Part shown: in pieces, positions 6,216 through 50,236 of the stretch
Position numbering within the stretch: position 1 is the stretch's first letter
Layout: every line of letters starts with the position of its first letter
Assembly: GCA_021797795.1 (NCBI GenBank)
Contig: JAJZZB010000006.1
Coordinates: 1-50,236, forward strand
DNA: 50,236 bases
DNA from: Actinomycetes bacterium
GTDB taxonomy: Bacteria; Actinomycetota; Acidimicrobiia; Acidimicrobiales; Bog-793
Reading direction: 5' to 3'
Made by a program: the position numbers and the translations under genes
The notes under the pieces: generated by a model
Databases searched by the model: none
Told to the model about the DNA's origin: nothing
Seen by the model: only the letters and a program-made list of their open reading frames with translations

Positions 6216-7721
6216 TCAGACCAGGTGCTCGACGAAGGACTCGAGCTGGCGCAGGTTGCGGCACTCGTAGACCCCGTCGCAGAACTGGGCGTAGTGGTCG
6301 ATGATCGAGTCGCCGCTCCCCCAGTAGGCCTCCGGCTCGGGGTTCAGCCAGTAGACGTGGCGTGCCCGCTGGCCCAGCTCCTTCACGACCCAGGACTCGG
6401 GCGTGTGGTAGTTCGAGCGGGCGTCGCCGAGCAGGAGGACGCTCGTCTTCGGCCCGACTTCCCCGCCCCAGCGCTGGAAGAAGACGGAGAGGGCGTGCCC
6501 GTAGTCCGAGTGCCCGTCGACCCAGACGACGTCGGCCTCCTGGTTCACCCGGTGGACGGCCTCGGTCACGGTCTCGGAGCGCTCGAAGATCTCGGTGACC
6601 TCGTCGATCCCGTCGATGAAGACGAAGCTCCGCACCTTGGAGAACTGCGACGAGATCGCGTGGACGAGGTGCAGGGTGAAGCGGGCGAAGGCGGCGACCG
6701 AGCCGGAGATGTCGGCCACCACGAAGATCTCCGGCTTGCTCGGCCGGGGATGGCGGAACCGCGGCTCGGCCGGGACACCGCCGTAGGAGAGCGAGTGGCG
6801 CACCGTCGCCCGGAAGTCGAGCGAGCCGCGCCGCAGGTGGCGCCGCTTGCGGGCGAGGCGGGCCTGCAGCTTGCGGGTGAGCGGCTGGATGGCCCGGCGC
6901 ATCATGACGAGCTCGTCGCGGGTGGCGTGCATGAAGTCGACGTCCTCGGGCAGGGGCTTTCGCAGCGACTTGGCGAGCGCCTCGGCCCCCCGGTCGGCCA
7001 CGAGGCGCCGGCGGATCTCGGCCTCGATCTCCCGGCGCAGCTCCTCGATGCGGAAGCGGTACTCGTCCTCGAGGAGCCGCTCCTCGAGGGCCGTCAGCCG
7101 GCCGAGCGCGCCGGCCCGCAGGATCGGCCCCGGCCGGGCGCCGTCCGGGCCGTCCTCTCCGGCCGTGCCGGCCTCGATGCGGGCGCGGGCCTCGCCGACG
7201 AGGCGGGCGAGAACGCCCTCCAGGTCGAGGTTGCGCAGCGTCCGGTACAGGTAGTAGGTCCCCCCGACCGGGCGGCCCGGCTCCATGCCGGCGAAGCGGG
7301 CGACGGCCAGGCGGGCGACGGCGCCGAGCATCGACTGGTCGGCGTCGCGAAGCGCCCGGTAGAGCATGGCGGCGAGCTCTTCGGGGCTCACCATCTCGAG
7401 CCCGCCGGCACCGGCATCGCCCTCTCCCCTCCCCCGCTCGGCACCCTCCGGGGCTGCCTCGCCGTCCTGCTCGGCCCCCGCCGGGCCGACGAGGTCGAAC
7501 TGGGGTCCCCGCAGGGAGAAGTAGACCTCGAAGGCGGTGTCGAAGGCGCGCCAGTGGGCCGAGGACTTGACGAGGGTGGCGCCGAGGGCGTACTTGATGG
7601 CCTGGCGGTCCTCGAGCGGCAGGTGGCCGATGGCATCGGCGGCGTCGGCCGCCTCGGTCACCGAGACCGGCAGGCCCGAGCGGCGCAGCTCGGCGACGAA
7701 GCCGGTGAGGACGTCGAGCAC
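6216..7721 (-). CDS. VWA domain-containing CoxE-like protein
   Basis: FVAELRRSGLPVS, LDFRATVRHSL, MIDAS DISGS, GHSDYG, LGDARSNY, YWLNPE, CRNLRQL. Confidence 0.92.
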   Translation of the reverse strand: MLDVLTGFVAELRRSGLPVSVTEAADAADAIGHLPLEDRQAIKYALGATLVKSSAHWRAFDTAFEVYFSLRGPQFDLVGPAGAEQDGEAAPEGAERGRGEGDAGAGGLEMVSPEELAAMLYRALRDADQSMLGAVARLAVARFAGMEPGRPVGGTYYLYRTLRNLDLEGVLARLVGEARARIEAGTAGEDGPDGARPGPILRAGALGRLTALEERLLEDEYRFRIEELRREIEAEIRRRLVADRGAEALAKSLRKPLPEDVDFMHATRDELVMMRRAIQPLTRKLQARLARKRRHLRRGSLDFRATVRHSLSYGGVPAEPRFRHPRPSKPEIFVVADISGSVAAFARFTLHLVHAISSQFSKVRSFVFIDGIDEVTEIFERSETVTEAVHRVNQEADVVWVDGHSDYGHALSVFFQRWGGEVGPKTSVLLLGDARSNYHTPESWVVKELGQRARHVYWLNPEPEAYWGSGDSIIDHYAQFCDGVYECRNLRQLESFVEHLV

Positions 7722-7728
7722 GCCCCCG

Positions 7729-8643
7729 TCAGCGCCCCGGCTCGGCCGCCGCCGAGGTGGCGGCGGCCAGCTCCTTGGCGGCCAGCTCGATGTCGGAGCG
7801 GTACTTGAGGAGCAGGTGCAGGGTGGAGCGAGCCGTCTCCTCGTCGACGGACTCGATGCCGAGCAGGACGAGGGTGCGGGCCCAGTCGAGCGTCTCGGAG
7901 ATCGAGGGGTGCTTCTTCAGATCGAGCGCCCGCAGCGAGCGGACGATGCGCGCCACCTGGTCGGCCAGCTGATCGGTGATGCCGGGCACCTTGGCGAGGA
8001 CGATCGCCCGCTCCCGCTCGACGCTCGGGTAGTCGAGGTGGAGGAACAGGCAGCGCCGCTTCAGCGCCTCGGACAGCTCCCGGGTGTTGTTCGAGGTGAG
8101 GAAGACGAGCGGGATCTGGCTGGCGACGACGGTGCCGAGCTCGGGGATGGAGACCTGGTAGTCGGAGAGCACCTCGAGCAGGAGGGCCTCGGTCTCGATC
8201 TCCACCCGGTCGACCTCGTCGATGAGCAGGACGACCGGCTCGGGCGCCGAGATCGCCTCGAGCAGCGGCCGGGTGAGGAGGAAGTCCTCGGAGAAGATGT
8301 TCTCCTCGACCTCCTCCCAGCCGGCTCCCTGCTCCACCTGGATGCGCAGCAGCTGCTTTTTGTAGTTCCACTCGTACAGGGCCTTGGACTCGTCGAGCCC
8401 CTCGTAGCACTGGAGCCGGATGAGGCGGGCGCCGGTCATGGCGGCGACCGACTTGGCGAGCTCGGTCTTGCCGGTGCCGGCGGGGCCCTCCACGAGCACC
8501 GGCTTGCCGAGGCGGTCGGCGAGGTAGACGACGCCGGCGAGGCCGTCGTCGGCGAAGTAGCCGACCCTCTCGAGGTCCCGGCGGACCTCGGCCACCGAGG
8601 AGAACCTCGGCTCGGCGTTGCTCGAGAGATCGAGTGAGCTCAC
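7729..8643 (-). CDS. MoxR family AAA+ ATPase (CoxD-like)
   Basis: EGPAGTGKTELAK Walker A, RLQCYEGLD, LLIDEVD Walker B, TSNNTRELSEALKRRC; GTG 8643 overlaps proA TGA. Confidence 0.93.
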   Translation of the reverse strand: MSSLDLSSNAEPRFSSVAEVRRDLERVGYFADDGLAGVVYLADRLGKPVLVEGPAGTGKTELAKSVAAMTGARLIRLQCYEGLDESKALYEWNYKKQLLRIQVEQGAGWEEVEENIFSEDFLLTRPLLEAISAPEPVVLLIDEVDRVEIETEALLLEVLSDYQVSIPELGTVVASQIPLVFLTSNNTRELSEALKRRCLFLHLDYPSVERERAIVLAKVPGITDQLADQVARIVRSLRALDLKKHPSISETLDWARTLVLLGIESVDEETARSTLHLLLKYRSDIELAAKELAAATSAAAEPGR

Positions 8644-34828: not shown

Positions 34829-35748
34829 GCCTTCGCCACGCCTGACGCCCGCGGTCGAGAGGCCGCCCGGCGGACGCCACCGGGTCGAGGGTCTCGGCGG
34901 CGCGCCCACCATGCCGGCGCCGGCACGGTGCGTACCGGCGGTGGACCAGAGCCGGCGAGGATCCCGCTCGGCGGCGTCGTGGCCGACCGGCTCGCCGTCC
35001 CCGTGTGCCGTACGGCGCCGACGATGCCGTCTCCACCGCCGAAAAGAGGCCAACCGCCGCCGGGTCGCGGGGCGCCCCGGTGTCGCCTACCGGCGCGCTC
35101 CCTCACGGCTCTGGCGGGAGTGCGTTCGAAGCCAGGGTGGGCGCCCGGGAGCCTGCCGCCCTCGAGGGACCGGGCGACGTCCTCGGGGGTCTCGGCGAGC
35201 CGCGGCCGGGGCGCAGGGCGCCGGATGTCGTGCGCCGGTAGGGAGTCCGACCCGGATGCCCCTGCCGCTCCTACCCGGGCCGAAGGAGCGTGCCAGGAGC
35301 CGGGAGACCAGCGATCAATGCGCTCCCTAGGAACCGCCCCCATACCCCCCTCCGTCTCGTCCGCCATTGCGGCGCCGTCCAGGAGCCATGTCCTCCTGCA
35401 CTCCCCTCGAGTTGCCGCCCAGCCGAGAGCCCCATGGCGAACCGAGGCGCCGCGTGCCCCGGGCGTCCTCTCAGCCCGATCGCTCCGCCGGCCCAACCTT
35501 GCAGGTGGGCCGAGGGCAGCGACGCCGACTGCGCGCGCTTCGTGACAGCTCGAACGCTGTCAGCAGTCGCATGATCGCAGACCTGTAACGCAAGAGGCCT
35601 TGTGACTGCTGGGCTGCAGACATATAGTGTCCTTCTCCTAAGCGAGCTCCAGGTCGATATCCGGGACGGGCGGTCTCGGATCGATGGATGTCGGTGCAAG
35701 CGTCGATACGCCAGGGAAGGGGAACGTCCCTCGGCGCGGTGGGGGGGG

Positions 35749-37011
35749 ATGGCCATGCACCTGTCCGAAGCCGAGACGCTCTCGACCTCTCCGAGCGAGA
35801 CTCGACATCTGAGAATCCTCGCCGGGCTCGACCGTGACCTCTCAGCCGCGGTGATGCAGGCAGCAGACCGCTACGAGCTGGCTCAGATCCTGCAGCGGCG
35901 GACCGGGCGGCAGGTGCTGCTCGACGAGCGCGACGACCAGGCGCGCGCAGCCGTCGAGGACGATCGGATCCTGACCGGCAGCGTGAGCGACCGCAGAGCC
36001 CTGTGGGCCCTCGGCGACTCTGCGCCGGTGGCGGCTCGCTTCAAGCTCGGTGAGCGCTGGGCGGCGACCGTCCGCGCCGACTGCCAGCCGACCGTCGCCG
36101 TGTTGAGCCTCGAGGCGGACCTGAGCGAGGAGTGGCTGCTCGTCGCGCTCGAGATGACGGCCATCGCCGCCACGACGGTGCTCGCCATGCAGCAACGCAT
36201 CGCCGAGGCCGAGGTGACGGCGTGGGAGGATCTCGCCGCCGATCTGCTGAGCGCTCCTTGCTCGGAGCGCGTCGAGGCGCTCGCCCGCCGGCTGCACTAC
36301 GACCTCTCGGTGCCCTTGCGCGTGGCCCTCGTCCGGCCGGAGGAGCCGAGCCGAGCGCTCGCCTCCTCCACCGAGCAGGCGGCCCGACGCCTCAAGCTCC
36401 GCGACCTCCTCATGACCGAACGCGCCGGCACCATGGTGGTCGTCGTCGATCAGGACGTCGACTGGGAGCAGTTCGCCTTCCTCGTCTCAGAGGGGCTCGG
36501 CTGCGGCGTGTCGGTCGGCGTCGGCAACGCCGTCGACTACCGGTACCTCCCGAGCTCGCTGCACGGCGCCCAGACGTCACTGTCGCTCTCCTCGGTGCTC
36601 GGGCGGGAGCCGGGCGTCACGCGCTACGACGACCTCGGCATCTGGCGGCTGTTCGGCAGCGACGACCTCCCGGCGATGCAGCAGGAGATCGACCGGCGGA
36701 TCGGCCCGCTCATCCGCTACGACCGCCAGCACGGCAGCGAGCTGTTGAGGACGCTGTCCACCTACCTCGCCTGCTCGTGCGCCCACGACGCTGCCGCCCA
36801 CGCCCTCGTCATCCACCGCAACACACTGAAGTACCGCCTGAAGCGGATCGAGGCGCTCGTCGGCTGTGCGCTGGCGGACGCCGAGGACAGGTTCCATCTG
36901 GACTTCGCCTGCAGGGCGTGGACGACCGTCCAGGCGCTCTCGAGCGAGAGCGGGTGCGACGAGTCCCGCCTCATCCGGGCGGCGGCGGAGCTCGGTCGCG
37001 ACTCCGGCTGA
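35749..37011 (+). CDS. PucR/CdaR family transcriptional regulator
   Basis: VSVGVG, YDDLGIWRL, LIRYD....SELLRTL..YL, AAHALVIHRNTLKYRLKRI HTH. Confidence 0.92.
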   Translation: MAMHLSEAETLSTSPSETRHLRILAGLDRDLSAAVMQAADRYELAQILQRRTGRQVLLDERDDQARAAVEDDRILTGSVSDRRALWALGDSAPVAARFKLGERWAATVRADCQPTVAVLSLEADLSEEWLLVALEMTAIAATTVLAMQQRIAEAEVTAWEDLAADLLSAPCSERVEALARRLHYDLSVPLRVALVRPEEPSRALASSTEQAARRLKLRDLLMTERAGTMVVVVDQDVDWEQFAFLVSEGLGCGVSVGVGNAVDYRYLPSSLHGAQTSLSLSSVLGREPGVTRYDDLGIWRLFGSDDLPAMQQEIDRRIGPLIRYDRQHGSELLRTLSTYLACSCAHDAAAHALVIHRNTLKYRLKRIEALVGCALADAEDRFHLDFACRAWTTVQALSSESGCDESRLIRAAAELGRDSG

Positions 37012-37114
37012 GCGCGACCGCAGCCACCTCCGCCTCCGGCCACGGCACGGCCTCCGCGCGCCTCGGCGTCTCCCGGGCCCCGGCCGAACTCGGTCCTTCC
37101 TCTCGCCGCGGCAG

Positions 37115-37141
37115 GGTTTTTGGCGGCCCACTGCCGGGTAG
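37115..37141 (+). promoter_or_regulatory. SigB/SigF-type promoter of SRPBCC-gvp operon
   Basis: GGTTT-N16-GGGTAG, ~125 nt upstream of ATG 37265. Confidence 0.7.
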
Positions 37142-37264
37142 CTCCTCGCATCGCCGCGATACGGCGTGCGCACGAGCGCCGTCGAGATCCTGACCACCCC
37201 GAGACCAGGCCGTCGCCTGAGCATGAGAGAGGAACGGCCCAGGCGGCGGAGGAGGCAGACTCCC

Positions 37265-37912
37265 ATGGTTCGTCAAGCCGACAGCGCGCAGGGCTCCTCG
37301 CTCTTTGAGAGCGGGGAGGAGGAACAGGCCAGCACGAAGCCGGCCCAAGGTGGTGCGCCCGTCAAGAGCTCGCACATCATCGAGGAGCACATCGACGTCG
37401 GGATCCCCCGGCAGACGGCCTATGACCAGTGGACCCAGTACCGGGAGCTCCCGAAGTACTCCAGGCACGAGTCGGCCGAGGCGAAGCGCGAGGGCCGGGT
37501 GTCCTTGACCTCGAAGGTCGGTCCGGCCAGGCGGCGCTGGGATGCCGACATCGTCGAGCAGGTGCCGCCCAAGCGCATCGCATGGAGAAGCGTCGGCGGC
37601 GCCCGCAACATGGGCGTCGTCACCTTCCACGAGATCGACGGCCGGCTGACGCGGGTGATGGTGCAGATGGAGTACCACCCGCGGGGCGCACTCGAGACGG
37701 TCGGCAACTTCTTCCGCATGCAACGCCGGCGGGTCCGCAAGGACCTGAAGCTCTTCAAGCACTTCATCGAGCTGCGGGGCGAGCCCACAGGTGAGGGGGC
37801 GGGTCCGGTCGAGGGCGAAGGGCGCGCCCGGGAGGCCGATGGGCGGCTCGGCGGGCGAACCGCCGACGACAGACCCGGGCGGCGACAGTCTGCACGACGA
37901 GAGGCGAGCTAG
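37265..37912 (+). CDS. SRPBCC (polyketide cyclase-like) protein, GvpZ-like
   Basis: IEEHIDVGIPRQTAYDQWTQY, EQVPPKRIAWRS, GVVTFH, RRVRKDLKLFKHFIE; GGAGG SD. Confidence 0.9.
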   Translation: MVRQADSAQGSSLFESGEEEQASTKPAQGGAPVKSSHIIEEHIDVGIPRQTAYDQWTQYRELPKYSRHESAEAKREGRVSLTSKVGPARRRWDADIVEQVPPKRIAWRSVGGARNMGVVTFHEIDGRLTRVMVQMEYHPRGALETVGNFFRMQRRRVRKDLKLFKHFIELRGEPTGEGAGPVEGEGRAREADGRLGGRTADDRPGRRQSARREAS

Positions 37913-37920
37913 GAGCGAGC

Positions 37921-38970
37921 ATGGCGAGGAGACAGAGAGTTCTCGGCCTTCCCATCGGGAAGAAGAAGCCCCGGATCCCGACCAAGGCATGGGTGGCAGG
38001 AGCGAGCCTGGCGGCCGTTCCGGCAGCCGTCGGTGCTCGCCGGGTCGGCGACCTGGTCTCGACCGGGCGACGGGGCATCGAGAAGGCTTCGGACCTGGCG
38101 GGAACGGCGAGCCACGTGGCCGAGGCGATGTCGAGCCACGGCTCCACTCTCGGCAAGGTGGGCGCGGCTGTCAGCGAGATGCGCGAGCTGGGTGGCCATG
38201 GCGGATCGACCGCCCCGAAGCTCTCACACGTCATCGAGGAGCACATCGAAGTCGCCGTCGCGCGCTCGGTCGCCTACAACCAGTGGACGCAGTTCGAGAC
38301 GTTCCCCTCCATCACCAAGGGGACAGAGCAGGTCGAGCAGCAGGGCCGCGACAAGGTGACGTGGACGAGCAGGATCGGGCCGTCGCGCCGGAGCTGGCAG
38401 GGCGAGATCACCGAGCAGGTACCCGATGAGCGCATCGCCTGGAGGGGTGCGGGCGGCCTCCAGCTGAAGGGAGTCGTCACATTCCACTCCCTCGACGACG
38501 ATCTCACCCGGGTGCTCGTCCAGATGGAGTACGACCCCTGCGGTGCCGTCGAGACCGTGGGGAACCTGTTGCGGGTCCAGCGCCGGCGCGTACGACGGGA
38601 CCTGCGGCTGTTCAAGCACTTCCTCGAGCTGCGGGGGGACGCCACCGGCGCATGGCGCAACCGCATCGCCAAGAAAGACGGCGGCGGAGGCGCCCGAGAC
38701 AGCGGGGAGTCCGGATCCTCGAGCCGCAGCACGGGTGAACGAGCGGGTCGCGCGACCTCGGCAGCCAAGCGGGCGGCTCGGTCAGCCACCAAGTCCCCGA
38801 GCTCTCCGAAGGCGAGCTCGAGCCGGTCCCAGAGCTCGAAGGATCGCTCGAGCGGGGCGGCCAAGAGCGGCGGAAGCCGGCAGCCGAGCAGGCGGGGGAG
38901 CGGCACCGGCCGCTCCCGCTCGGACGGGGCGGCCAAGCAGAGCCGTGCCCAACCGAGGCGGCCCGCATGA
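37921..38970 (+). CDS. SRPBCC protein, GvpZ-like, with Ser/Arg/Lys-rich tail
   Basis: [58 protein letters not shown]. Confidence 0.9.
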
Positions 38971-39476
38971 GCCTCACCGAGGCGCGGTCCAGTTCGGTGA
39001 CGCGGGCTCCCCGACCGAGCAGCCTGGCGGACGTCCTCGACCTCATCCTCGACAAGGGGCTCGTCATCGACGCCTACGTCAGGGTGTCCCTCGCCGGCAT
39101 CGAGGTCCTCACCATCGATGCCCGGATCGTCGTGGCGAGCGTGGACACCTACCTCCGCTTCGCCGAGGCCGTGAATCGCCTGGACCTCACCACCACCGAG
39201 GCTCCGGGGTTGAAGGGCCTCTCTCACGACACCTCCCGACGGGGTGGTGAGGAGGAGTCGGACGGCAAGCAGGCCCCGTCGGGCCTCCGGCGGGGCGGCG
39301 ACAAGAGCGACGGCGACGGGCATCGCGTCGCTCCGACCGGTCGCGGTGGCTCGGAACCCGAGCGGGCGGGCGGGCCCTCTACTCGCCGTGAGCACGCGGC
39401 GGGCGAGCAGGCGGGCGGCGAAGAGGGCGGAGGCATGCTCCACCGCCTGGCCGAGCGTGCGCGATTCGAGCAGTGA
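38967..39476 (+). CDS. gvpA: Gas vesicle structural protein GvpA (long C-terminal extension)
   Basis: [57 protein letters not shown]. Confidence 0.94.
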
Positions 39477-39516
39477 GCCAGCAGAGAACCGGGCTGCAGC
39501 CCAGAGGAGGTACACG

Positions 39517-39747
39517 ATGAGGATCGGTCAACGGCATCGCCTCGTGGACGAGCTGAACCCTCTCGACGAGGTGGCGGGCGCCGTGCTGACGCTCGGCGCC
39601 CTCAACTGGGGGCTCGTCGGCGCCGCAAACTTCGACGCCATCCGAGCCGCCTTCGGGCGGTCGGCGGCCACGCGCGCCGCCTACGGGCTCGTAGGAGCGA
39701 GCGCCGCCTACGCACTCGTGCGCGGACGTCAGCTGGCAAAGAAGTGA
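39517..39747 (+). CDS. DUF378 domain small membrane protein
   Basis: LGALNWGLVG..NFD....FG....R..YGLVG; GAGGAGG SD. Confidence 0.85.
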   Translation: MRIGQRHRLVDELNPLDEVAGAVLTLGALNWGLVGAANFDAIRAAFGRSAATRAAYGLVGASAAYALVRGRQLAKK

Positions 39748-39796
39748 GGCAAGCCGTCGCGTCCGGCGGTGGGGTCCGCCGAGGAAGGAGAGGGCC

Positions 39797-40396
39797 ATGT
39801 TGAAGCGATTCGGACTCGGGTTCGGGATCGGGTACGTCCTCGGGGCCCGCGCCGGCGAGAAGCGGTACGCGCAGCTTGGGTCCGCCGGCCAGCGACTCGC
39901 CCAAGCCCCAGTGGTGAAGGACCTCGTCGAGCGGGCGCCGAAAGTCGCCCGCGACACCTTCGACCACCTGATGGAGGCGGTGAAGGACCGCGCCAGCTTC
40001 ACGGGCACCGGTGAGGGACGGCCCTCTGACGAGGACGGCGGCCCGCGGTCGCCGGCCGAGGATCGAACGGCCGGAGAGGAAGACGACCAGGGATTCGCCA
40101 CGGACGAGCAGGAGCGCGACGACGGTCCCGGCGCCGACGAACCGGAAGAGGACGAGGGAGCCGATACAGGCGAGCGGGTCGCGCGGAGCGCGCCCACGGG
40201 CACGCGTCGCCGGAGCGACGCCCGGTCCGCGACGGGCCGGGACGGACGCCCGTCAGCAAAGAGCCAGTCAGACGGGCAGTCGGCCGAGGGCGGGACGGGC
40301 GGATCAAAGGAGCCGGAGCAGCGCCGGCACCGGTCGCTCGTCTCCTCGGTAGCAGAGCTCGCATCCGCAGCAGCCGAACGAGGGAGGGTGGCCTGA
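39797..40396 (+). CDS. YtxH-like protein with acidic disordered tail
   Basis: GLGFGIGYVLGARAGEKRYAQL N-terminal motif. Confidence 0.75.
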   Translation: MLKRFGLGFGIGYVLGARAGEKRYAQLGSAGQRLAQAPVVKDLVERAPKVARDTFDHLMEAVKDRASFTGTGEGRPSDEDGGPRSPAEDRTAGEEDDQGFATDEQERDDGPGADEPEEDEGADTGERVARSAPTGTRRRSDARSATGRDGRPSAKSQSDGQSAEGGTGGSKEPEQRRHRSLVSSVAELASAAAERGRVA

Positions 40397-40765
40397 GTGG
40401 CAACCACAACCAGCAGCGTCACGCGGGCGCCGCGCCCGAGCAGTCTGGCCGACGTCCTCGACCTGATCCTCGACAAGGGACTTGTGATCGACGCCTACGT
40501 GCGCGTCTCCGCCCTCGGGATCGAGGTCCTAACGATCGACGCCCGGATCGTGGTCGCCAGCGTGGACACCTACCTGCGCTTCGCCGAGGCGGTCAACCGG
40601 CTCGACCTCACCACCACCGAGACTCAGGGCATCAAGGGGCTCTCCCGCGACCTCTCCCGGGGCGGCGCCGAGGGGAAGACCGAAGGGGCGGTCGAGGGCA
40701 CGAAGGAGGCCGTCCACGACGACGGCGGGCGAGGCTCGAGGGAGCGCTCGGGGGCACGGTCGTGA
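40397..40765 (+). CDS. gvpA: Gas vesicle structural protein GvpA (second copy)
   Basis: [57 protein letters not shown]. Confidence 0.95.
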
Positions 40766-41562
40766 CCGGTCCGGCGCTGTACCTCTACGCCATCGTGCCC
40801 ACGGGGGTACGGCTCCCCGGGGTGGTCGGCGTCTCCGAGCAACCGCTGCGCCTTCTCGAGTGTGGGCGGATTGCCGCGCTGGCGAGTGCACTGCCGAAGG
40901 CGGCTGCGCGAGTCAGCGCCGGCAACGTGCGGGCCCACCAACAGGTGGTGGAGGAGTCGCATCTCTCGACGACGACCCTGCCGTTCCGCTTCGGCGTCGT
41001 GGCCGACTCCGAGGAGTCGCTCGTCGGTTCGTTCCTCGCCCGCCACGAGGCCACCCTGGCGCGCAGGCTCGCCGACTTCGAAGATCTGACCGAGGTGAGG
41101 GTGAGCGCCCGCTACGCCGGCGACGCTGCCCTCCGTGAGCTCGTCGCGACAAGTGCCCGGCTTCGACGCCTTCGCGAGTCAGTCGCTCGGCGGCCGGCGG
41201 CGGCGACCTACTACGAGCGCATCGCCCTCGGGGAGGAGGTCGCAGGGGGGCTGGCCGTGCTTCGCGAGCGGGACGCCGACACGTGCTCGTCCTCCCTCGA
41301 GCGCCACGCCAGGGCTGAGCGCAGGCTTCGGCACTCGGGCGAGGACGGCGCCTTCCACGCTGCCTACCTCGTCGAGCAGGACCGGGTGCCCGGCTTCGAG
41401 CAGGGGCTCGAACAGCTCGCTGCCGAGCAGCGGGGCCGCCTCGAGTTCGAGCTGACCGGACCGATGCCGCTCTGGGACTTCGTGGAGATGGACCGGAAGG
41501 ATCTGAAGGGGTTGCCGGACCTGGCTACCGCCGGCCGCGGCCGAGGGCGATGGGCCTCCTGA
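40762..41562 (+). CDS. gvpF: GvpL/GvpF family gas vesicle protein (GvpF position)
   Basis: [44 protein letters not shown]. Confidence 0.9.
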
Positions 41563-41798
41563 GCAAGCTCGCGCAGCTGCCCCTTGCACCGGTCTCCGGC
41601 GTCGTCTGGCTCGCCGGGCAGATCGAGCAGCAGGCCCGAGCCGAGTGGGACGAGGCCGGCAGCTTCCGCCATGAGCTGAACGAGCTCGTCGCGATGCACG
41701 GGCGGGGGGAGATCTCCGATGACGAGCTCGCTGCCGCAGAGGACGAGCTGCTCGGACGCCTCGACCCGGCGACGGGCGAGCAGCGGGAGGCGCCATGA
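41550..41798 (+). CDS. gvpG: Gas vesicle protein GvpG
   Basis: MGLL..L..LPLAPV.GVVW....I, GEISDDE....EDELL.RL. Confidence 0.9.
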   Translation: MGLLSKLAQLPLAPVSGVVWLAGQIEQQARAEWDEAGSFRHELNELVAMHGRGEISDDELAAAEDELLGRLDPATGEQREAP

Positions 41799-42067
41799 GC
41801 GACGTCGGGAAGAGCCTTGCTGCCGTGATCGAGTCCGCACGCTCCGGCTTCGAGCGCCTGGCGGGGCGCCAGGTGGAGGCAGTGTCGGCGGTGAACCGGC
41901 AGGACGGGGGTTGGCGCCTCGAGTTCGAGGTCGTCGAGCTGGCGCGCATCCCCGGCTCGACCAGCCTGCTCGGGACCTATGAGATACGGGTCGACCACGA
42001 CGGCGAGGTCCTCGAGTACGACCGCGTGCGCCGCTACTACGCCAACCGTGCGGACGAGGAGGCCTGA
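41795..42067 (+). CDS. gvpO: Gas vesicle protein GvpO
   Basis: GWRLEFEVVELARIP.STSLLGTYEI.VD.DG....Y.RVRRY. Confidence 0.92.
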   Translation: MSDVGKSLAAVIESARSGFERLAGRQVEAVSAVNRQDGGWRLEFEVVELARIPGSTSLLGTYEIRVDHDGEVLEYDRVRRYYANRADEEA

Positions 42068-42069
42068 GG

Positions 42070-42435
42070 GTGCAGTTCGACGACGGTTCCGGCGACCTGC
42101 CGGGCTCAAGCCACCGCGGTCTTGTGACTCGCGGCGATACGACCAACCTGGCAGACATCCTCGAGCGGGTGCTCGACAAGGGCGTCGTCATCGCGGGCGA
42201 CATCGTGGTCAGCCTGGTGGACGTCGAGCTTCTCACCATCCGCCTGCGGCTCCTCATCGCCTCGGTCGACAAGGCGAGGGAGATGGGCATCAACTGGTGG
42301 GAAGAGGATCCCTGGCTCAGCGCGGCCGCCGGCGGCGACAGACGCCAGGGCGAGCTCGACGGCCGCCTCGAGCGCCTCGAGCGCTCCGTCGACCGTCTGG
42401 TGGACGCCTTCGAGACGGCGAGAGCACGTTCATGA
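42070..42435 (+). CDS. gvpJ: Gas vesicle protein GvpJ
   Basis: NLADILERVLDKGVVIAGDIVVSLVDVELLTIRLRLLIASVDKAREMGINWWEEDPWL. Confidence 0.94.
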   Translation: MQFDDGSGDLPGSSHRGLVTRGDTTNLADILERVLDKGVVIAGDIVVSLVDVELLTIRLRLLIASVDKAREMGINWWEEDPWLSAAAGGDRRQGELDGRLERLERSVDRLVDAFETARARS

Positions 42436-43238
42436 ACCAGCTGGACCAGGACTCCCCGGCACAGGCGGGATCTCTCTACCTGTACGCGGTGGTGCCGGCG
42501 GACTGCCCGGAGGTGTCGCCTCCCCTGAGTCTCATCCGGCACGGCTCCCTCGCGGCGGTCGCCTCCGAGCCCCCTGACGCGCTGGTGGACCTCGCCGCCC
42601 ACCTCGAGAGCCTGCAGGGTGACCGGGCCGGCTTCGCCGGCCTCGAAGAGGCCGTCCGCACGCACGAGGCGGCAGTCGAGCGCCTACAGGCGGAGTCGGT
42701 CGTCCCGCTCCGGCTCGGCACCACGGTGAGGACGACCGAGGACGTGCGCCGCCTGCTCGACCTCCACGGCAGCGCCTTCTCGAGCTCGCTGTCACGCGTG
42801 GCGGGCCAGGTCGAGTGGTCGGTGCGGGTCTGCACGGCTCCGCAGCCGGCAGGGACGCCATCAGACGACGCGTCGGCCTCCTCGGGTCGGGCATACCTCG
42901 AGCGGCGGCGCCTCGAGAAGGAGTCCGCGCAGCGTGACAGGGCCCGGCGCGAGCAGACCGGAGCCCGCATCGCCGAGCGTCTGGCAGCCGTGGCCACCGA
43001 GGTGGCGCTGGCCTACGACGGCCCCCCCGGCGGACCGGTGCACCCTGAGGGCGCACACGCGGTCGTGCGTCTTGCCTGCCTGGTCCCGAGATCCTCCGGG
43101 GAACACTTCTTCGACGCTCTCGACGATGCCATGGCGGACGTCGGAGACGATGCCTATGCCGAGGTGACGGGGCCGTGGCCGCCGTACCACTTCGTCTCGC
43201 TCCCGGAGCTCGTGGACGGCGAGGCGGGGCCTTCGTGA
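42432..43238 (+). CDS. gvpL: GvpL/GvpF family gas vesicle protein (GvpL position)
   Basis: LYLYAVV, HEAAVE, VVPLRLGT, EWSVRV, SGRAYL, TGPWPPYHFV; ATG 42432 overlaps gvpJ stop. Confidence 0.9.
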   Translation: MNQLDQDSPAQAGSLYLYAVVPADCPEVSPPLSLIRHGSLAAVASEPPDALVDLAAHLESLQGDRAGFAGLEEAVRTHEAAVERLQAESVVPLRLGTTVRTTEDVRRLLDLHGSAFSSSLSRVAGQVEWSVRVCTAPQPAGTPSDDASASSGRAYLERRRLEKESAQRDRARREQTGARIAERLAAVATEVALAYDGPPGGPVHPEGAHAVVRLACLVPRSSGEHFFDALDDAMADVGDDAYAEVTGPWPPYHFVSLPELVDGEAGPS

Positions 43239-43831
43239 CCTCCGGCCTCGAGACTGAGGCGAGGGCGGCAAGAGCAGACGAGCTCTCGCTCGCCGAACTC
43301 CTCGACCGCCTCATCGGCGGCGGCGTGGCTCTGCAGGGGGACCTCGTGCTCTCGGTGGCGGGTGTGGATCTCGTCTGGCTCGGCCTTCGCGCCGCCTTGG
43401 CCGGCGCCGACCTTGCGCCGCCTGGCGCCGGCGACGACCTCCCTCGCCACCTGCCCACGAGCGGCTCCGCAGGCTGCCGGGGATCCCGGAGGGACCGGCC
43501 GGCGGCGCGACCCGATCCCGGCTCTCGGGCAGGCGAGCTCCCGACCGGCATCCCCGGCGGCGGACGGGACACCCGTGTCGAGGTCGACGACGACCGCGTC
43601 GAGGAAGGACTCGTGCGCCTCGTGCTCTCGGTGGTGGAGCTCCTGCGCCAGCTCATGGAAGGGCAGGCACTTCGCAGGATGGACGCCGGCTCCCTCTCCG
43701 AGGAGCAGCTCGAGCGAGTGGGGACCGCCCTCATGCGTCTCAGCGAACGGATGGACGAGCTGCGGCAGTTCTTCGGGCTGACCGAGGACGACCTCGCGCT
43801 CCATCTCGGCAACCTGAAGGACCTCGGGTGA
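43235..43831 (+). CDS. gvpK: Fused GvpS-GvpK gas vesicle protein
   Basis: N-part LAELLDRLIGGGVALQGDLVLSVAGVDLVWLGLRA (GvpS/A-J fold); C-part GLVRLVLSVVELLRQLMEGQALRRM..GSL...Q.ERVG..LM.L...FGL...DL (GvpK); one frame, no stop. Confidence 0.88.
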   Translation: MTSGLETEARAARADELSLAELLDRLIGGGVALQGDLVLSVAGVDLVWLGLRAALAGADLAPPGAGDDLPRHLPTSGSAGCRGSRRDRPAARPDPGSRAGELPTGIPGGGRDTRVEVDDDRVEEGLVRLVLSVVELLRQLMEGQALRRMDAGSLSEEQLERVGTALMRLSERMDELRQFFGLTEDDLALHLGNLKDLG

Positions 43832-43871
43832 CCGCCCGCCACGCGCAACGTGGGAAGCCAAAGGAGGGGTG

Positions 43872-44522
43872 ATGGGACCCAGGAAGAAGACGAGACACGC
43901 CACTGCTGGCCCACTCGTCGTCGTGGGCAGCCTGACCGGCCGCCACCGCGGCAGCGGGAAGGGTTGGAAGACCGGTGCCCAGGTGCTCGCCGGCACGGCC
44001 CGTGCGGTTCCCGACCGGGTGGCAAAGGTCGTCGCCGGCCCGCTCCCGAAGGGAGTGGCGAAGCGCGTGCCCAGCCGGCGCAGGCGCAAGAAGATGGTGA
44101 AGACGCTCACCGGCGACATCGAACGGCTGAGCGGGCTGGCGAGCGGCCTCAGCACGGTGCTCGGCCTGGCGGCCACGGGCGGAGAGCTGCTCTCGGTTCT
44201 GCGGGACCGACAGGAGCCAGGCGGGAGGGACGAGGACGCTGCCGGGGAGCGCCAGCCGGGCCGAGCACCCGGGACGCCGGCCGCTCGTGGCCCCGGAGCG
44301 ACCTCGGAGGCGCACGACCCGCCTGGGGAGGAGAACGCGGACGACGAGTTGGCCGCCGGGCAGAGCCAGGAGGAGGACGAGGGCGGGGAGGAAGGCCCCA
44401 CAGCCGGCTACGACGACGAAGACGAGGGCTCGTCCGACGAGGATGGTGCCGAGGAGTCGAGCCCCGAGGTCGGAGATGACGAGCACGTCCGCACAGGAGG
44501 CAGGACTCGCCGTGCCAGCTGA
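43872..44522 (+). CDS. Hypothetical protein, basic N-half and acidic disordered C-tail
   Basis: AAGGAGG SD; co-directional with gvp genes; E/D-rich tail. Confidence 0.7.
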   Translation: MGPRKKTRHATAGPLVVVGSLTGRHRGSGKGWKTGAQVLAGTARAVPDRVAKVVAGPLPKGVAKRVPSRRRRKKMVKTLTGDIERLSGLASGLSTVLGLAATGGELLSVLRDRQEPGGRDEDAAGERQPGRAPGTPAARGPGATSEAHDPPGEENADDELAAGQSQEEDEGGEEGPTAGYDDEDEGSSDEDGAEESSPEVGDDEHVRTGGRTRRAS

Positions 44523-44748
44523 GAGTCTTCGTGCCCGCTACATCGGCCTGTTGCTGGAACGGCTGTCGGATACGCGCTACCCGAGCGCCCCGATACTGGA
44601 CCGGATCGAGGCCGCCATCACTGATCGAGACCAGGCCGAGGCATATGTCGGGCAGCTGCTCGGCCTGATCGAACAGGACAGCTACCCGAGCCCCGAGATG
44701 CTGGGGCGCATCCACAACCTCGTCGCGATCATCGAGTCCGCCGCGTAG
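44476..44748 (+). CDS. Small hypothetical protein with two YPS repeats (start 44476 or GTG 44512)
   Basis: LLERLSDTRYPSAPILDRIE / LLGLIEQDSYPSPEMLGRIH internal duplication; last gene of operon. Confidence 0.75.
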   Translation: MTSTSAQEAGLAVPAESLRARYIGLLLERLSDTRYPSAPILDRIEAAITDRDQAEAYVGQLLGLIEQDSYPSPEMLGRIHNLVAIIESAA

Positions 44749-45087
44749 GCAGCTGGGCTCCGGGCCCGCACCCTCGGCCCCTCGGTGCGCGTCCCAGCCC
44801 GACCTCAGCTCGACACGGCATCTGCGCGAGCTGCGCCCGTGCAGCGCTGACGGGGCACGGACCCTGCCCCCTCTGGCCGTTGTGGGGACGACACGACTGC
44901 GCCAGCTCGCCGTCGGCACGAGCGCCGGGCATCGCGGGCAACGGGTTCTCGACTGCCGAGATCGGCGCTCGGAGAGGACGGGCGAAAGCCCATCGGTCGG
45001 CGAGCGCCTTGCGAGGTGCGAACCCAGCGCCGGAGGGCACTCTGCTGGGCGGCCTCTTCGGGTCCTTGCAACCTCGGGTCACGGCCC

Positions 45088-46083
45088 TCACGCCGTCGCC
45101 CGAGGTGCTACCGCCGTAGTCGCCCCCTCGGTTCTGGTCCTGCCGGCGCGCGTGCGCTCGAGCTCGGCGTTGAGCTCCGCTCCGAGCAGCACGACGGCAC
45201 CGGTGGCGTACAGCCACAGGATGAGGATCGCCACGCCGGCGAAGGCTCCGTAGGTCTTGCCATACGAGCCGAAGCTGGACGTGTAGAAGGAGAACGCGAG
45301 AGAGACAAGGACCCAGAGCAAGGTCCCGACAACAGCGCCCGGGGTCAACCACTGCCAGCGGGGCGACTCGCGGTTGGGACCGATCCAGTAGATGAAGGAG
45401 AACAGCAGGCAGACCAGAACGACGGCGGCGATCCACCGCACCGCTGTCCACACCGCGTCGAAGAGGGACCCGCCGATCGGGACGAACCCACCTATGCCGT
45501 GACCGATCTGCGCTCCAAGGACGATCAGAGCGGAGGCCGCCCCTCCGAGCACCGCCACGGCGACCATGAGCTCGAGCGCCACGAGGCGCTTCGCGAGGAA
45601 CTTGCGGTCAGAGGGGATCTCGTAGGCCATGTCGAGGCCGGTCTGCAGCACGGTCATGGACGACGTGGCGCTGAACAGTGCCACCGCCGCGGCGATGATC
45701 GTCGCCACGAGCGCTCCGCTCGCCCGGTGCTGAGCATGCCGGATGGCGCTGGTCAGGACGCCGGACGCGCCGGAGGGGAGCGCCGAAGCGGCGCCGTGGA
45801 TGAGCCTGTCGACGACACTCGAGGGCAGCTGCAGGAGCGAGGTGACGCCGAGCAGCGCGATGAGGGCCGGGAACATGCTGAGGAACCAGCGGTACGCCAG
45901 ACTCCCTCCCACGACGTTCACCCGGTCTGCCTTCGTGTGGGCGAGCGCCCCCTTGCCAGCTGCTCTCCACTCACTCCTCGTGAGCCGGGTCGGCGACTGC
46001 CGATCGAGGGCGGCCTTGTCCGGCTCGCCGGCAGCCGACGCGGTTCGTTCCGCTCCTAGCGGCATCGTGGGGCTCCCCTCCAT
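45088..46083 (-). CDS. YihY/virulence factor BrkB family membrane protein
   Basis: GSLAYRWFLSMFPAL, LDMAYE, WQWLTPGA, FSFY...FGSYGKTYGAFAGV.IL.LWLY, GAELNAELER. Confidence 0.93.
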   Translation of the reverse strand: MEGSPTMPLGAERTASAAGEPDKAALDRQSPTRLTRSEWRAAGKGALAHTKADRVNVVGGSLAYRWFLSMFPALIALLGVTSLLQLPSSVVDRLIHGAASALPSGASGVLTSAIRHAQHRASGALVATIIAAAVALFSATSSMTVLQTGLDMAYEIPSDRKFLAKRLVALELMVAVAVLGGAASALIVLGAQIGHGIGGFVPIGGSLFDAVWTAVRWIAAVVLVCLLFSFIYWIGPNRESPRWQWLTPGAVVGTLLWVLVSLAFSFYTSSFGSYGKTYGAFAGVAILILWLYATGAVVLLGAELNAELERTRAGRTRTEGATTAVAPRATA

Positions 46084-47916: not shown

Positions 47917-48348
47917 ATGTCGATCGAGGTGGAGCGCAGGTTCGGGTCCGACCCTTCCACGCCGGCCGCCGTCCGATCGCTGGTCTCGGAGATGCTCAGG
48001 CTGTGGGAGTGCGGCGATTATGAAGAGACCGCCAGCCTGCTCGCGAGCGAGCTCGCCACGAATGCGCTCGTCCACACAGGTACCGACATCTCCGTGAGGC
48101 TCAGCCTCGACCGCGAGGTCCTGCTCGTCGAGGTGGAGGACGGGTCCCTCGAGCTCCCGAGGCCGATTCCCATCACGACGGACTCCGAGCGCGGGCGGGG
48201 TCTCGTCCTCGTGCAGGCTCTCAGCCAGAAGTGGGGGGCCACCCGCCGAGCGGGCGGCAAGGTCGTCTGGTTCGAGCTGACGGTGCGACCGAGGCCCTGG
48301 CGCGTCGCCGCTCCCCGAGATCCCTCACGTCACGCCGCCGCAGTGTGA
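47917..48348 (+). CDS. ATP-binding protein, RsbW-like anti-sigma factor (HATPase_c)
   Basis: LLASELATNALVH, VEVEDG, ERGRGL.LV..LS..WG, GKVVWFEL. Confidence 0.9.
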   Translation: MSIEVERRFGSDPSTPAAVRSLVSEMLRLWECGDYEETASLLASELATNALVHTGTDISVRLSLDREVLLVEVEDGSLELPRPIPITTDSERGRGLVLVQALSQKWGATRRAGGKVVWFELTVRPRPWRVAAPRDPSRHAAAV

Positions 48349-49326: not shown

Positions 49327-50236
49327 ATGGACGAGGGACAGGCGGGAGCCGGTCGATCTGGACGGAGGGTCTCGATCCGGTCAATCGGCGTTCGCCAGTG
49401 GCCAGCGCTCGCCCTCAGGGTGACGCGGGAGGCGGCACACGACAGAGTCACGCTCGTCGCCGCCAGCCTCGCCTTCCACGGCTTCCTCGCCCTCCTGCCG
49501 GTCATCATCGCAGTAGTCGGGCTGCTCGGCCTCGTCGGCGTCGGCGCCGGGGCGTTGCGCAGCCTGGTCCACGCCACGAGCGTCCTGCTCCCCCAGCAGA
49601 TGTCGAGCATCTTGAACGCCGAGCTGCGAAGGCCCCCGGGCGGTGGCCTGAGCGCCCTCGAAGTGGCACTCGGCTTCGGCGTCGCCCTCTGGAGCTCCGT
49701 CGAGGCGATGGCCGCACTCCAGCTCGCCCTCGACGTCGCCTATGAGACCGCGGGCGACCGGGGCTTTGTCCGTCGGCGCATCGCGGCCTTCCCGTTGATC
49801 GGCATCACGCTGCTGCTCGGCGGTGCAGCCTCGGTGCTGCTCGTCCTCGGGGGACGCCTCGGAGACCTCCTGCCGAGCGCCTTCGGAGGGGTGCTCCCGC
49901 CGCTTCGCTACGCCGGGTCACTCGTGCTCGTCGTCCTGCTCCTGTCCGGCTACTACCGACTCGGTCCGAGCACGGCGCGCTCTTCGTGGGAGTGGATCAG
50001 CCCGGGTGCCGGGGTGGCCGCGGTCGGGTGGATGCTCACCGCCCTGGGCTTCTCCTTCTACCTGGACCACTTCGGGCATGAGTCCCGGAGCTACGGCGCG
50101 CTGGCCGGGGCCGCGGTGACCCTGCTCTGGCTCTTCCTCACCGCCGTCATGGTCCTCTTCGGCGCCGAGATCAACCGGGAGCTCGAGCGGATGTGGGACC
50201 GAGTCCCTGGCGCACCCGCCCGACGAGCCGTCCCGC
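49327..50236 (+). CDS. Second YihY/BrkB family membrane protein (3' end runs off window)
   Basis: Manual translation from ATG 49327: DRVTLVAASLAFHGFLALLP, LDVAYE, WEWISPGA, FSFYL..FG...SYGALAG....LLWL, GAEINRELER. Confidence 0.92.
   Translation, partial: MDEGQAGAGRSGRRVSIRSIGVRQWPALALRVTREAAHDRVTLVAASLAFHGFLALLPVIIAVVGLLGLVGVGAGALRSLVHATSVLLPQQMSSILNAELRRPPGGGLSALEVALGFGVALWSSVEAMAALQLALDVAYETAGDRGFVRRRIAAFPLIGITLLLGGAASVLLVLGGRLGDLLPSAFGGVLPPLRYAGSLVLVVLLLSGYYRLGPSTARSSWEWISPGAGVAAVGWMLTALGFSFYLDHFGHESRSYGALAGAAVTLLWLFLTAVMVLFGAEINRELERMWDRVPGAPARRAVP

Follow-up and report, generated by a model that had tools for sequence, protein, structure and literature searches.

The gas-vesicle (gvp) clusters of actinomycetes have long been puzzling: GvpN and GvpC are missing, the hosts are not planktonic, and both their product and its purpose are disputed. 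For Streptomyces coelicolor, the gene order gvpO, A, F, G, Y, Z, J, L, S is given in the accessible part of PMC5839063 (Table 2). In Halobacterium, the essential accessory proteins beside GvpA are F, G, J, K, L, M and O, according to Table 2 of the review by Pfeifer (PMC9501494). The available text of that paper describes GvpC as an external strengthener and states that ΔN transformants still form tiny vesicles, GvpN being needed only to enlarge bicones. Here we analysed a stretch of 50,236 nucleotides (the window) from an Actinomycetes bacterium of the Acidimicrobiales (GenBank assembly GCA_021797795.1, contig JAJZZB010000006.1), which harbours a 14-gene gvp operon. We propose, with a probability of roughly 0.6, that this operon, of the actinomycete type, is functional and makes gas vesicles in the absence of GvpN and GvpC. 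Its lineage-specific layers are all conserved: a separable triad of genes, a pair of GvpZ-like SRPBCC genes and two genes for unnamed small proteins at the 3′ end.

The operon comprises 14 co-directional, tightly packed genes (37265-44748, plus strand), as established from the listing of open reading frames (ORFs), the third-position GC content (GC3) by frame, and Pfam and NCBIfam scans. In order, they encode two SRPBCC proteins, a GvpA, a DUF378 protein, a GvpY-like protein, a second GvpA, GvpF, G, O, J and L, a GvpS-GvpK fusion, and two hypothetical proteins, hyp14 and hyp15 (Table 1). This is the gene list of the initial annotation, which hidden Markov model (HMM) scans, GC3 and gene junctions bear out. 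With the most plausible start codons, the 13 junctions range from −13 to +49 nt, eight of them overlapping or abutting; this is one translationally coupled operon. GC3 tracks the reading frame of every gene in the cluster, all 14 ORFs are intact, and the base composition is unchanged across the cluster, the window having a GC content of 72% throughout. Matches to PF00741 in the window's genome are confined to four places, all within the operon. For the first SRPBCC gene, the ATG at 37265, which is preceded by GGAGGAGG, is more likely the start than 37115 or 37166; 37166 and 37223 are alternative starts. The gvpS-K gene probably starts at 43235 and the last gene at 44512. A scan of positions 35300-45300 for promoters and terminators returned one promoter-like site (35600) and two minus-strand terminator-like sites, which equals the level of shuffled sequence and is uninformative at 72% GC.

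That the cluster lacks gvpN and gvpC had been noted in the initial annotation, and our searches agree. In the window's genome (G000; 324 contigs, 93.75% complete), the best of six matches to the GvpN model TIGR02640 scored 45.5 bits against a cut-off of 266.8, and none passed. GvpC (PF01304) had no match in this genome, a weak blank because the PF01304 control matched in none of 14 genomes. GvpN reached the cut-off in one (G291) of 26 gvp-bearing Actinomycetota genomes and was missing from the other 25, so the GvpN-less cluster is the norm in this phylum. The true GvpN of that one genome (347.8 bits; G291:C7:1835-2620 and L059) belongs to a small genome of 1.6 Mb with a different, classical cluster layout. 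Both types, with and without GvpN, thus exist in Actinomycetota. GvpK, used as single-copy marker, was found in two of 40 relatives, the window's genome counted, and in 22 genomes of a phylum-wide sample of 401. As a side observation, the second-best of the weak GvpN matches (41.7 bits), an AAA protein at 7858-8511 on the minus strand of the window, was rejected as GvpN. This AAA_5-type ATPase adjoins a VWA_CoxE gene and is therefore read as a CoxD/MoxR-type ATPase; together with the VWA_CoxE protein (PF05762, E 9.5e-46) it forms a CoxD/CoxE- or MoxR-type pair (6216-8511, minus strand) that is unrelated to the gvp operon.

To compare gene neighbourhoods, 20 kb around GvpK were taken at 20 places, together with five further stretches, and compared with all proteins of the window. 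In the genus g85, with genomes of 7-10 Mb, an SRPBCC homologue lies within the locus in 10 of 11 loci, L047 being the exception. In eight of these 10 it is located between gvpG and gvpJ; in L048 it lies on the opposite strand, upstream of gvpO. No gvpA, gvpF or gvpG was found in the L049 locus. Complete g85 clusters have the order O-A-F-G-x-SRPBCC-J-L-S-K, which agrees with that of S. coelicolor in PMC5839063. In L040, gene x encodes a Gly-rich N-terminal helix followed by a long charged tail, and the next gene a 409-aa (amino acid) PF03364 protein. By position against Table 2 of PMC5839063, gvpY would correspond to the Gly-helix protein and gvpZ to the SRPBCC protein. Genes annotated as 'SRPBCC family protein' are also linked to gvp clusters on Kitasatospora and Rhodococcus opacus plasmids; on the latter, the SRPBCC gene overlaps gvpJ. 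On the Kitasatospora plasmid NZ_CP108290.1 (L160:5107-7388), three genes are divergent from a gvpO-A-F-G-J-L-S-K operon: one annotated 'histone protein', one for an SRPBCC protein and one of the general-stress family CsbD. Judged by position and size, the 'histone protein' would be a GvpY-like protein with a Lys/Ala-rich tail. Hence the absence of GvpN, the extended GvpA, the SRPBCC gene and the GvpY-like gene are features of the known actinomycete type and no novelties of the window. The interleaving with stress-type genes, which the initial annotation had regarded as special, is not, because SRPBCC and GvpY-like genes are already regular in Streptomyces-type clusters, including those of Kitasatospora and Rhodococcus.

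Three consecutive genes, those for the upstream GvpA (GvpA1), the DUF378 protein and the GvpY-like protein, are referred to as the triad. DUF378 occurs in three of 22 gvp-bearing genomes. Of these, the window's genome and G011, which belong to the same family, are the only ones with the gene inside the cluster; the DUF378 gene of G240 sits on a different contig and has no gvp gene within 16 kb of it. When 185,579 species genomes were scanned with a DUF378 alignment, six loci were found, five of which (L062-L066) are from actinobacterial metagenome-assembled genomes and encode DUF378 proteins that are 69-89% identical. All five have the order gvpA, DUF378, GvpY-like, gvpA, F, G, O, J, and in all four that reach far enough L, S, K and hyp15 come next. 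The SRPBCC pair is directly upstream in four of the five; in the fifth (L063, which is G011) the two genes are together on a separate contig. L064 and L066 are unpublished; if they are set aside, three genomes remain, two of which have the SRPBCC pair upstream. In the window, L062 and L063, S is fused to K; in L065 and L066, an extra GvpF/L-like gene lies between the two. The fusion is real, since the same single ORF is present in L062 and L063, which are independent assemblies.

In addition, metagenomes were scanned, where 136 DUF378 relatives were confirmed and the best 80 of these 136 analysed. Gvp-type neighbours were present in 45 of the best 80 loci, with DUF378 proteins 54-83% identical to that of the window, and absent from 35, with DUF378 proteins 39-53% identical. 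Within the 45 gvp-linked loci, gvpA is the immediate upstream neighbour in 37 of the 40 that have more than 350 bp on that side, and the GvpY-like gene is the immediate downstream neighbour in 37 of the 39 that have more than 300 bp there. The accessory genes are thus syntenically conserved with gvp genes in L062-L066 and in the metagenome loci, which is consistent with the initial proposal. Twelve metagenome loci extend more than 1.5 kb downstream; gvpA2-gvpF come next in eight of them and not in four (L086, L099, L103 and L111). L099 and L103 run into unrelated genes, and in L094 4.5 kb of unrelated genes precede the triad. In all five of these loci, unrelated genes occupy the side on which the remaining gvp genes would normally lie, and some soil or sediment genomes may have the triad alone. 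The genes for the tailed GvpA, DUF378 and the GvpY-like protein behave as one module, which may even be found without the rest of the cluster. A profile of the gvp-linked DUF378 proteins gave a score of 142.6 bits on the window, and none above 61.4 bits was reached in the other 400 phylum genomes sampled, which shows that these proteins form a distinct, rare subfamily. In the literature searched by whole word, no paper was found that contains 'DUF378' together with 'gas vesicle', nor did the matches listed include a paper with DUF378 or YtxH alongside 'gas vesicle'. The triad is conserved and, as described here, appears to be new.

Compared with L062, the closest relative, all 14 genes are under purifying selection, with ratios of non-synonymous to synonymous substitution rates (dN/dS) of 0.10-0.51; because synonymous sites are almost saturated and carry a GC3 bias, only the ranking of these values can be trusted. 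DUF378 (0.10) is as constrained as GvpA2 (0.11).

The two gvpA genes of the operon are not equivalent. Over 71 codons of the core, 40 are identical, 27 differ synonymously and four non-synonymously, which indicates an old duplication with both copies kept under very strong constraint, not a recent copy. GvpA1 consists of a canonical shell core and a disordered tail of about 90 aa. In an alignment of 11 sequences, the tail of the upstream GvpA is always long and disordered and its composition varies, with a conserved motif at the end, G[ML][LV]xR[LI]AER[AG][RK][FW]. The downstream GvpA carries the short tail typical of actinomycete GvpA, and matches the shell proteins 7r1c (E 4.5e-21) and 8gbs (E 3e-19) solved by cryo-electron microscopy.

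An alignment of six GvpY-like sequences revealed a conserved N-terminus, MFKRFxxGxxxGYVLGARAG, with a Gly-rich helix, an acidic, disordered middle part, and a conserved C-terminus, LASAA(A/R)ERG(R/K)V(A/D). Of the region's 15 proteins, only GvpA1 and the GvpY-like protein show the pattern E[RK][GA][RK]-hydrophobic, each at its C-terminus, suggesting that this common motif may serve as a shared docking peptide. When the GvpY-like protein was compared with the corresponding g85 family by hhalign, a probability of 90% and an E of 1.5e-6 were obtained over 45 N-terminal columns. A direct match was not found by tblastn. We use the name GvpY-like with reservation, because the alignments of the Gly-rich helix are small and span 45 columns. 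The 'YtxH-like' identity assigned at first lacks support, as PF12732 gave no match at E <= 5; in the Atlas, YtxH is the nearest named cluster (score 0.79), which is a lead only. The initial annotation had also counted two small membrane proteins. Of the two, only the DUF378 protein contains a hydrophobic, transmembrane-like stretch (Kyte-Doolittle peak 1.58); in the GvpY-like protein no 19-residue window reaches 1.2.

The first SRPBCC protein is 65% identical to its L062 orthologue and 48% identical to the second. The N-terminus of SRPBCC 2 is basic and contains an LGLPIG motif; a hydrophobic stretch rich in Ala and Gly and a tail rich in Ser, Arg and Lys follow. Its N-terminal pattern (basic, LGLPIG, Ala/Gly-rich) is kept in 10 other loci. 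Its nearest solved chains are 2kcz and 3ggn (the uncharacterised DR_A0006; E 1.3e-5). Hyp14 has a basic N-terminus, one hydrophobic helix and a low-complexity, variable tail. Homologues were recognised by position and N-terminal pattern in L062, L063, L065 and L096, their tails ranging from acidic to basic, and its dN/dS against L062 is 0.51. Hyp15 contains two RYPS..(M/I)LDR(I/V)E repeats and adjoins gvp genes in eleven loci (L037, L038, L052, L053, L055, L062, L065, L066, L096, L104 and L118). It has 281 database relatives, none with a Pfam domain. Among the organisms named are Egibacter, Nitriliruptor, Egicoccus and Solirubrobacteraceae, and the source names shown are all 'hypothetical' or 'uncharacterized'. 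In an AlphaFold 2 (AF2) model, hyp15 forms four helices (mean predicted local distance difference test score, pLDDT, 85.5), for which Foldseek found no match in the PDB at E <= 0.001. Pfam families were found neither for the GvpY-like gene (39797-40396) nor for hyp14 (43869-44522) and hyp15 (from 44476 or 44512 to 44748). Hyp14 and hyp15 are conserved gvp-linked families without names.

All eight core proteins were matched and GvpA2 aligns to 7r1c and 8gbs; therefore, the best-supported reading is that ordinary core machinery builds gas vesicles. By homology, the ribbed shell would be a polymer of GvpA2 and probably GvpA1, with GvpJ and the GvpS part as minor shell paralogues, and GvpF, L, G, K and O would form a nucleation/chaperone complex. 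The tailed GvpA1 would co-assemble into the shell and display its tail outside. Through the shared C-terminal ERG(R/K)-hydrophobic motif, it and the GvpY-like protein would both dock onto one partner. With DUF378 included, the triad may replace missing functions of GvpC and GvpN, that is strengthening, growth or positioning. The vesicles may be small ones, and the accessory layer may cover what GvpN and GvpC do elsewhere. A more specific proposal, which we put forward as speculative and unlikely, is that the triad is a self-contained, transferable module that nucleates, positions or strengthens vesicles without GvpN and GvpC, the ERG(R/K) peptide of the tailed GvpA, which the GvpY-like protein shares, anchoring the vesicle at a site formed by DUF378 that may lie at the cytoplasmic membrane.

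Several observations speak against gas-vesicle formation. To our knowledge, vesicles have never been observed in this lineage. The cluster is patchy, with GvpK in one of 39 relatives when the window's genome is excluded, and no RNA runs were found among the listed runs that hold the stretch. The roles proposed for the tail motif, DUF378, the SRPBCC proteins, hyp14 and hyp15 are drawn from conservation and sequence features only. In the accessible part of PMC5839063, disruption of gvp genes in S. coelicolor is said to leave buoyancy unchanged (citing van Keulen 2005), and gas vesicles are said never to have been found in soil bacteria. Moreover, a figure legend in PMC10344784 has S. coelicolor as not reported to make gas vesicles. 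According to the available text of PMC9501494, gvpC and gvpN belong to the genes that are conserved in every cluster, and because of this their absence may limit vesicle size or strength.

We regard it as rather unlikely that the cluster encodes a GvpA-based nanostructure, maybe membrane-associated, that serves stress, osmotic or desiccation tolerance and not flotation. Such a role would fit the high-salt induction of the S. coelicolor gvp genes, for which a role against hyperosmotic stress has been proposed, and the unchanged buoyancy after their disruption (both PMC5839063, excerpt), as well as the rise of the GvpK protein after UV treatment in a soil actinobacterium (PMC8965627, accessible part). 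It would also fit the CsbD-family gene that adjoins the SRPBCC gene of the gvp cluster on the Kitasatospora plasmid and the moderately hydrophobic Ala/Gly-rich segments in DUF378, the N-terminus of SRPBCC 2 and hyp14. By analogy, a cluster without GvpN would be expected to give only small vesicles. However, a vesicle for stress and one for buoyancy cannot be told apart by sequence, the core set is an ordinary one, and the 'YtxH-like' general-stress label lacks HMM support. Furthermore, at least 78% of the stretch is present in three further DNA runs, all from one study and labelled mine drainage metagenome, a wet setting in which flotation would be possible; two further studies hold only 0.23 of the stretch's words.

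The triad might also be an independent unit that is merely located in the gvp operon and makes its own assembly, for example at the membrane, with no part in gas-vesicle formation. The four of 12 long metagenome loci in which gvpA2-gvpF do not follow, the unrelated genes after the triad in L099 and L103 and before it in L094, and the SRPBCC pair of G011, which is likewise unlinked, would agree with this. We nevertheless find it quite improbable: a full gvp cluster surrounds the triad in all six genomes known to carry it, gvpA2-gvpF follow in the other eight long metagenome loci, and contigs cannot reveal gvp genes located elsewhere in the same genome. In addition, co-assembly into one lattice is the simpler expectation, because the GvpA1 and GvpA2 cores differ non-synonymously at four of 71 codons. 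Very improbable, finally, is a silent or decaying relic, or a mere nitrogen store as speculated for Streptomyces in the accessible text of PMC5839063. The patchy distribution of GvpK and, for a store, tails rich in Arg, Glu and Gly could be taken that way, but the 14 intact ORFs with coding-type GC3, the dN/dS values given above, the very strong constraint on the GvpA cores and a gene order kept across several species and many metagenome contigs argue against decay or mere storage. Thus, we favour an operon that makes gas vesicles.

Further features of the operon and its direct neighbours are collected in Table 1. In the 218-aa form of the GvpS-K fusion, PF00741 covers residues 38-76 and PF05121 (GvpK) residues 134-217; the N-terminal part is closest to halo_gas_GvpM (E 4e-8).

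Table 1. Genes of the gvp operon and its two flanking genes (positions in the window)
Feature	Position	Strand	Evidence
PucR-type regulator	35749..37011	+	PF13556, PF17853; directly upstream
SRPBCC protein 1 (GvpZ-like), 215 aa	37265..37912	+	PF03364 (SRPBCC/Polyketide_cyc) E 1.3e-12; GC3 agrees
SRPBCC protein 2 (GvpZ-like), 349 aa	37921..38970	+	PF03364 E 9.9e-14
GvpA1 ('upstream' GvpA), 169 aa	38967..39476	+	PF00741 E 4.5e-14; NF006872 140.5 bits vs cut-off 151
gvp-linked DUF378 protein, 76 aa	39517..39747	+	PF04070 E 4.9e-14, 52.4 bits vs cut-off 25
GvpY-like protein, 199 aa	39797..40396	+	no Pfam or NCBIfam family
GvpA2 (canonical actinomycete-type GvpA), 122 aa	40397..40765	+	PF00741 E 6.2e-12; NF006872 151.9 bits vs cut-off 151
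GvpF, 266 aa	40762..41562	+	PF06386 (GvpL_GvpF) E 1.3e-52
GvpG, 82 aa	41550..41798	+	PF05120 E 2.9e-18
GvpO, 90 aa	41795..42067	+	PF05800 E 3.9e-24
GvpJ, 121 aa	42070..42435	+	PF00741 E 1.4e-16
GvpL, 268 aa	42432..43238	+	PF06386 E 5.2e-42; ATG overlaps gvpJ stop
GvpS-GvpK fusion, 198 aa (GTG 43235) or 218 aa (43175)	43235..43831	+	PF00741 and PF05121
hyp14, 217 aa	43869..44522	+	no family; GC3 agrees
hyp15, 78 aa (90 aa from 44476)	44512..44748	+	no Pfam family
YihY/BrkB-family membrane protein	45088..46083	-	PF03631 E 1.9e-59; convergent with operon end

Neither the PucR nor the YihY/BrkB neighbour was found beside any related gvp locus searched, and both were left out of the system because their linkage is not conserved in related loci. 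The flanks are presumably ordinary core genes (obg, proB/proA, mreBCD, ndk, folC and clpXP), named from their translations and not by HMM. A small HATPase_c_2 protein of the anti-sigma-factor kinase type is encoded 3 kb downstream of the operon (47917-48348, plus strand), and a second YihY/BrkB gene lies 3 kb beyond the first (49327-50235, plus strand). A YihY/BrkB-family gene is also located 130-700 bp from generic, non-gvp-linked DUF378 in four of the 35 non-gvp loci (L124, L125, L141 and L144), and another beside gvpK on the Kitasatospora plasmid (L160:1-2). This may reflect a loose DUF378-YihY association, or chance.

The initial annotation had seen in the operon a candidate for an undescribed system. 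The cluster type is known; the sub-type with triad, doubled SRPBCC gene, S-K fusion, hyp14 and hyp15 appears to be undescribed. Its conserved parts are concrete candidates for how vesicle formation is managed without GvpN and GvpC. By position, gvpZ of Streptomyces would encode an SRPBCC protein, and the 281-member hyp15 family becomes gvp-linked. The tailed GvpA would be a natural shell protein with a long display arm, which could interest engineers of acoustic reporters. If the vesicles are tethered by the triad, DUF378 would have a function assigned for the first time, and the gas vesicles of actinobacteria would be anchored organelles, not free floats.

Compared with the two S. coelicolor clusters (gvpO-A-F-G-Y-Z-J-L-S-K; SCO6499-6508 and SCO0649-0657), the window likewise lacks gvpN and gvpC and shares the core A, F, G, O, J, L, S and K as well as the C-terminal extension of GvpA (NF006872-type). 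An SRPBCC gene and a GvpY-like gene, the latter encoding a Gly-rich helix and a charged, disordered tail, lie inside the cluster in both, the putative kinship of the GvpY proteins being drawn from 45 aligned columns only. As the initial annotation had stated, the order in the window, Z-Z-A-DUF378-Y-A-F-G-O-J-L-SK-x-x, is different, and only the window has a doubled gvpA, a doubled SRPBCC gene and an S-K fusion. DUF378, hyp14 and hyp15 have no counterpart in the Streptomyces-type g85 loci.

The clusters of L052, L053 and L055 resemble the window in having a hyp15-family gene next to gvpA, a nearby SRPBCC gene with LGLPIG, no GvpN, and the order A-F-G ... O-J-L-S-(F-like)-K. Unlike the window, they contain neither DUF378 nor a tailed upstream GvpA with the C-terminal motif. 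GvpO and GvpJ of L053 and L055 carry SAP domains, and L055 encodes a two-SAP protein, none of which is present in the window. SAP is a nucleic-acid-binding motif. It is N-terminal on GvpO and C-terminal on GvpJ (L053:9683-10905 and L055:7239-10730; E 6e-11 to 1e-12), and the two-SAP protein of L055, 577 aa long, is encoded between gvpG and the second gvpA.

The Bacillus megaterium cluster gvpAPQBRNFGLSKJTU (PMC9501494, Table 1, in the part available) is also a Gram-positive one and, like the window, has two GvpA-type shell genes with extra small genes between them, and S and K adjacent to each other; it contains gvpN, whereas the window does not. Its GvpP may be YtxH-like. In comparison with p-vac of Halobacterium salinarum (gvpACNO / gvpDEFGHIJKLM), the window lacks GvpC, N, H, I, D and E, the blank for GvpC being weak. 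A, F, G, J, K, L, M and O are all matched, GvpS standing in for GvpM, and to these the window adds the SRPBCC, DUF378 and GvpY-like proteins, hyp14, hyp15 and long GvpA tails.

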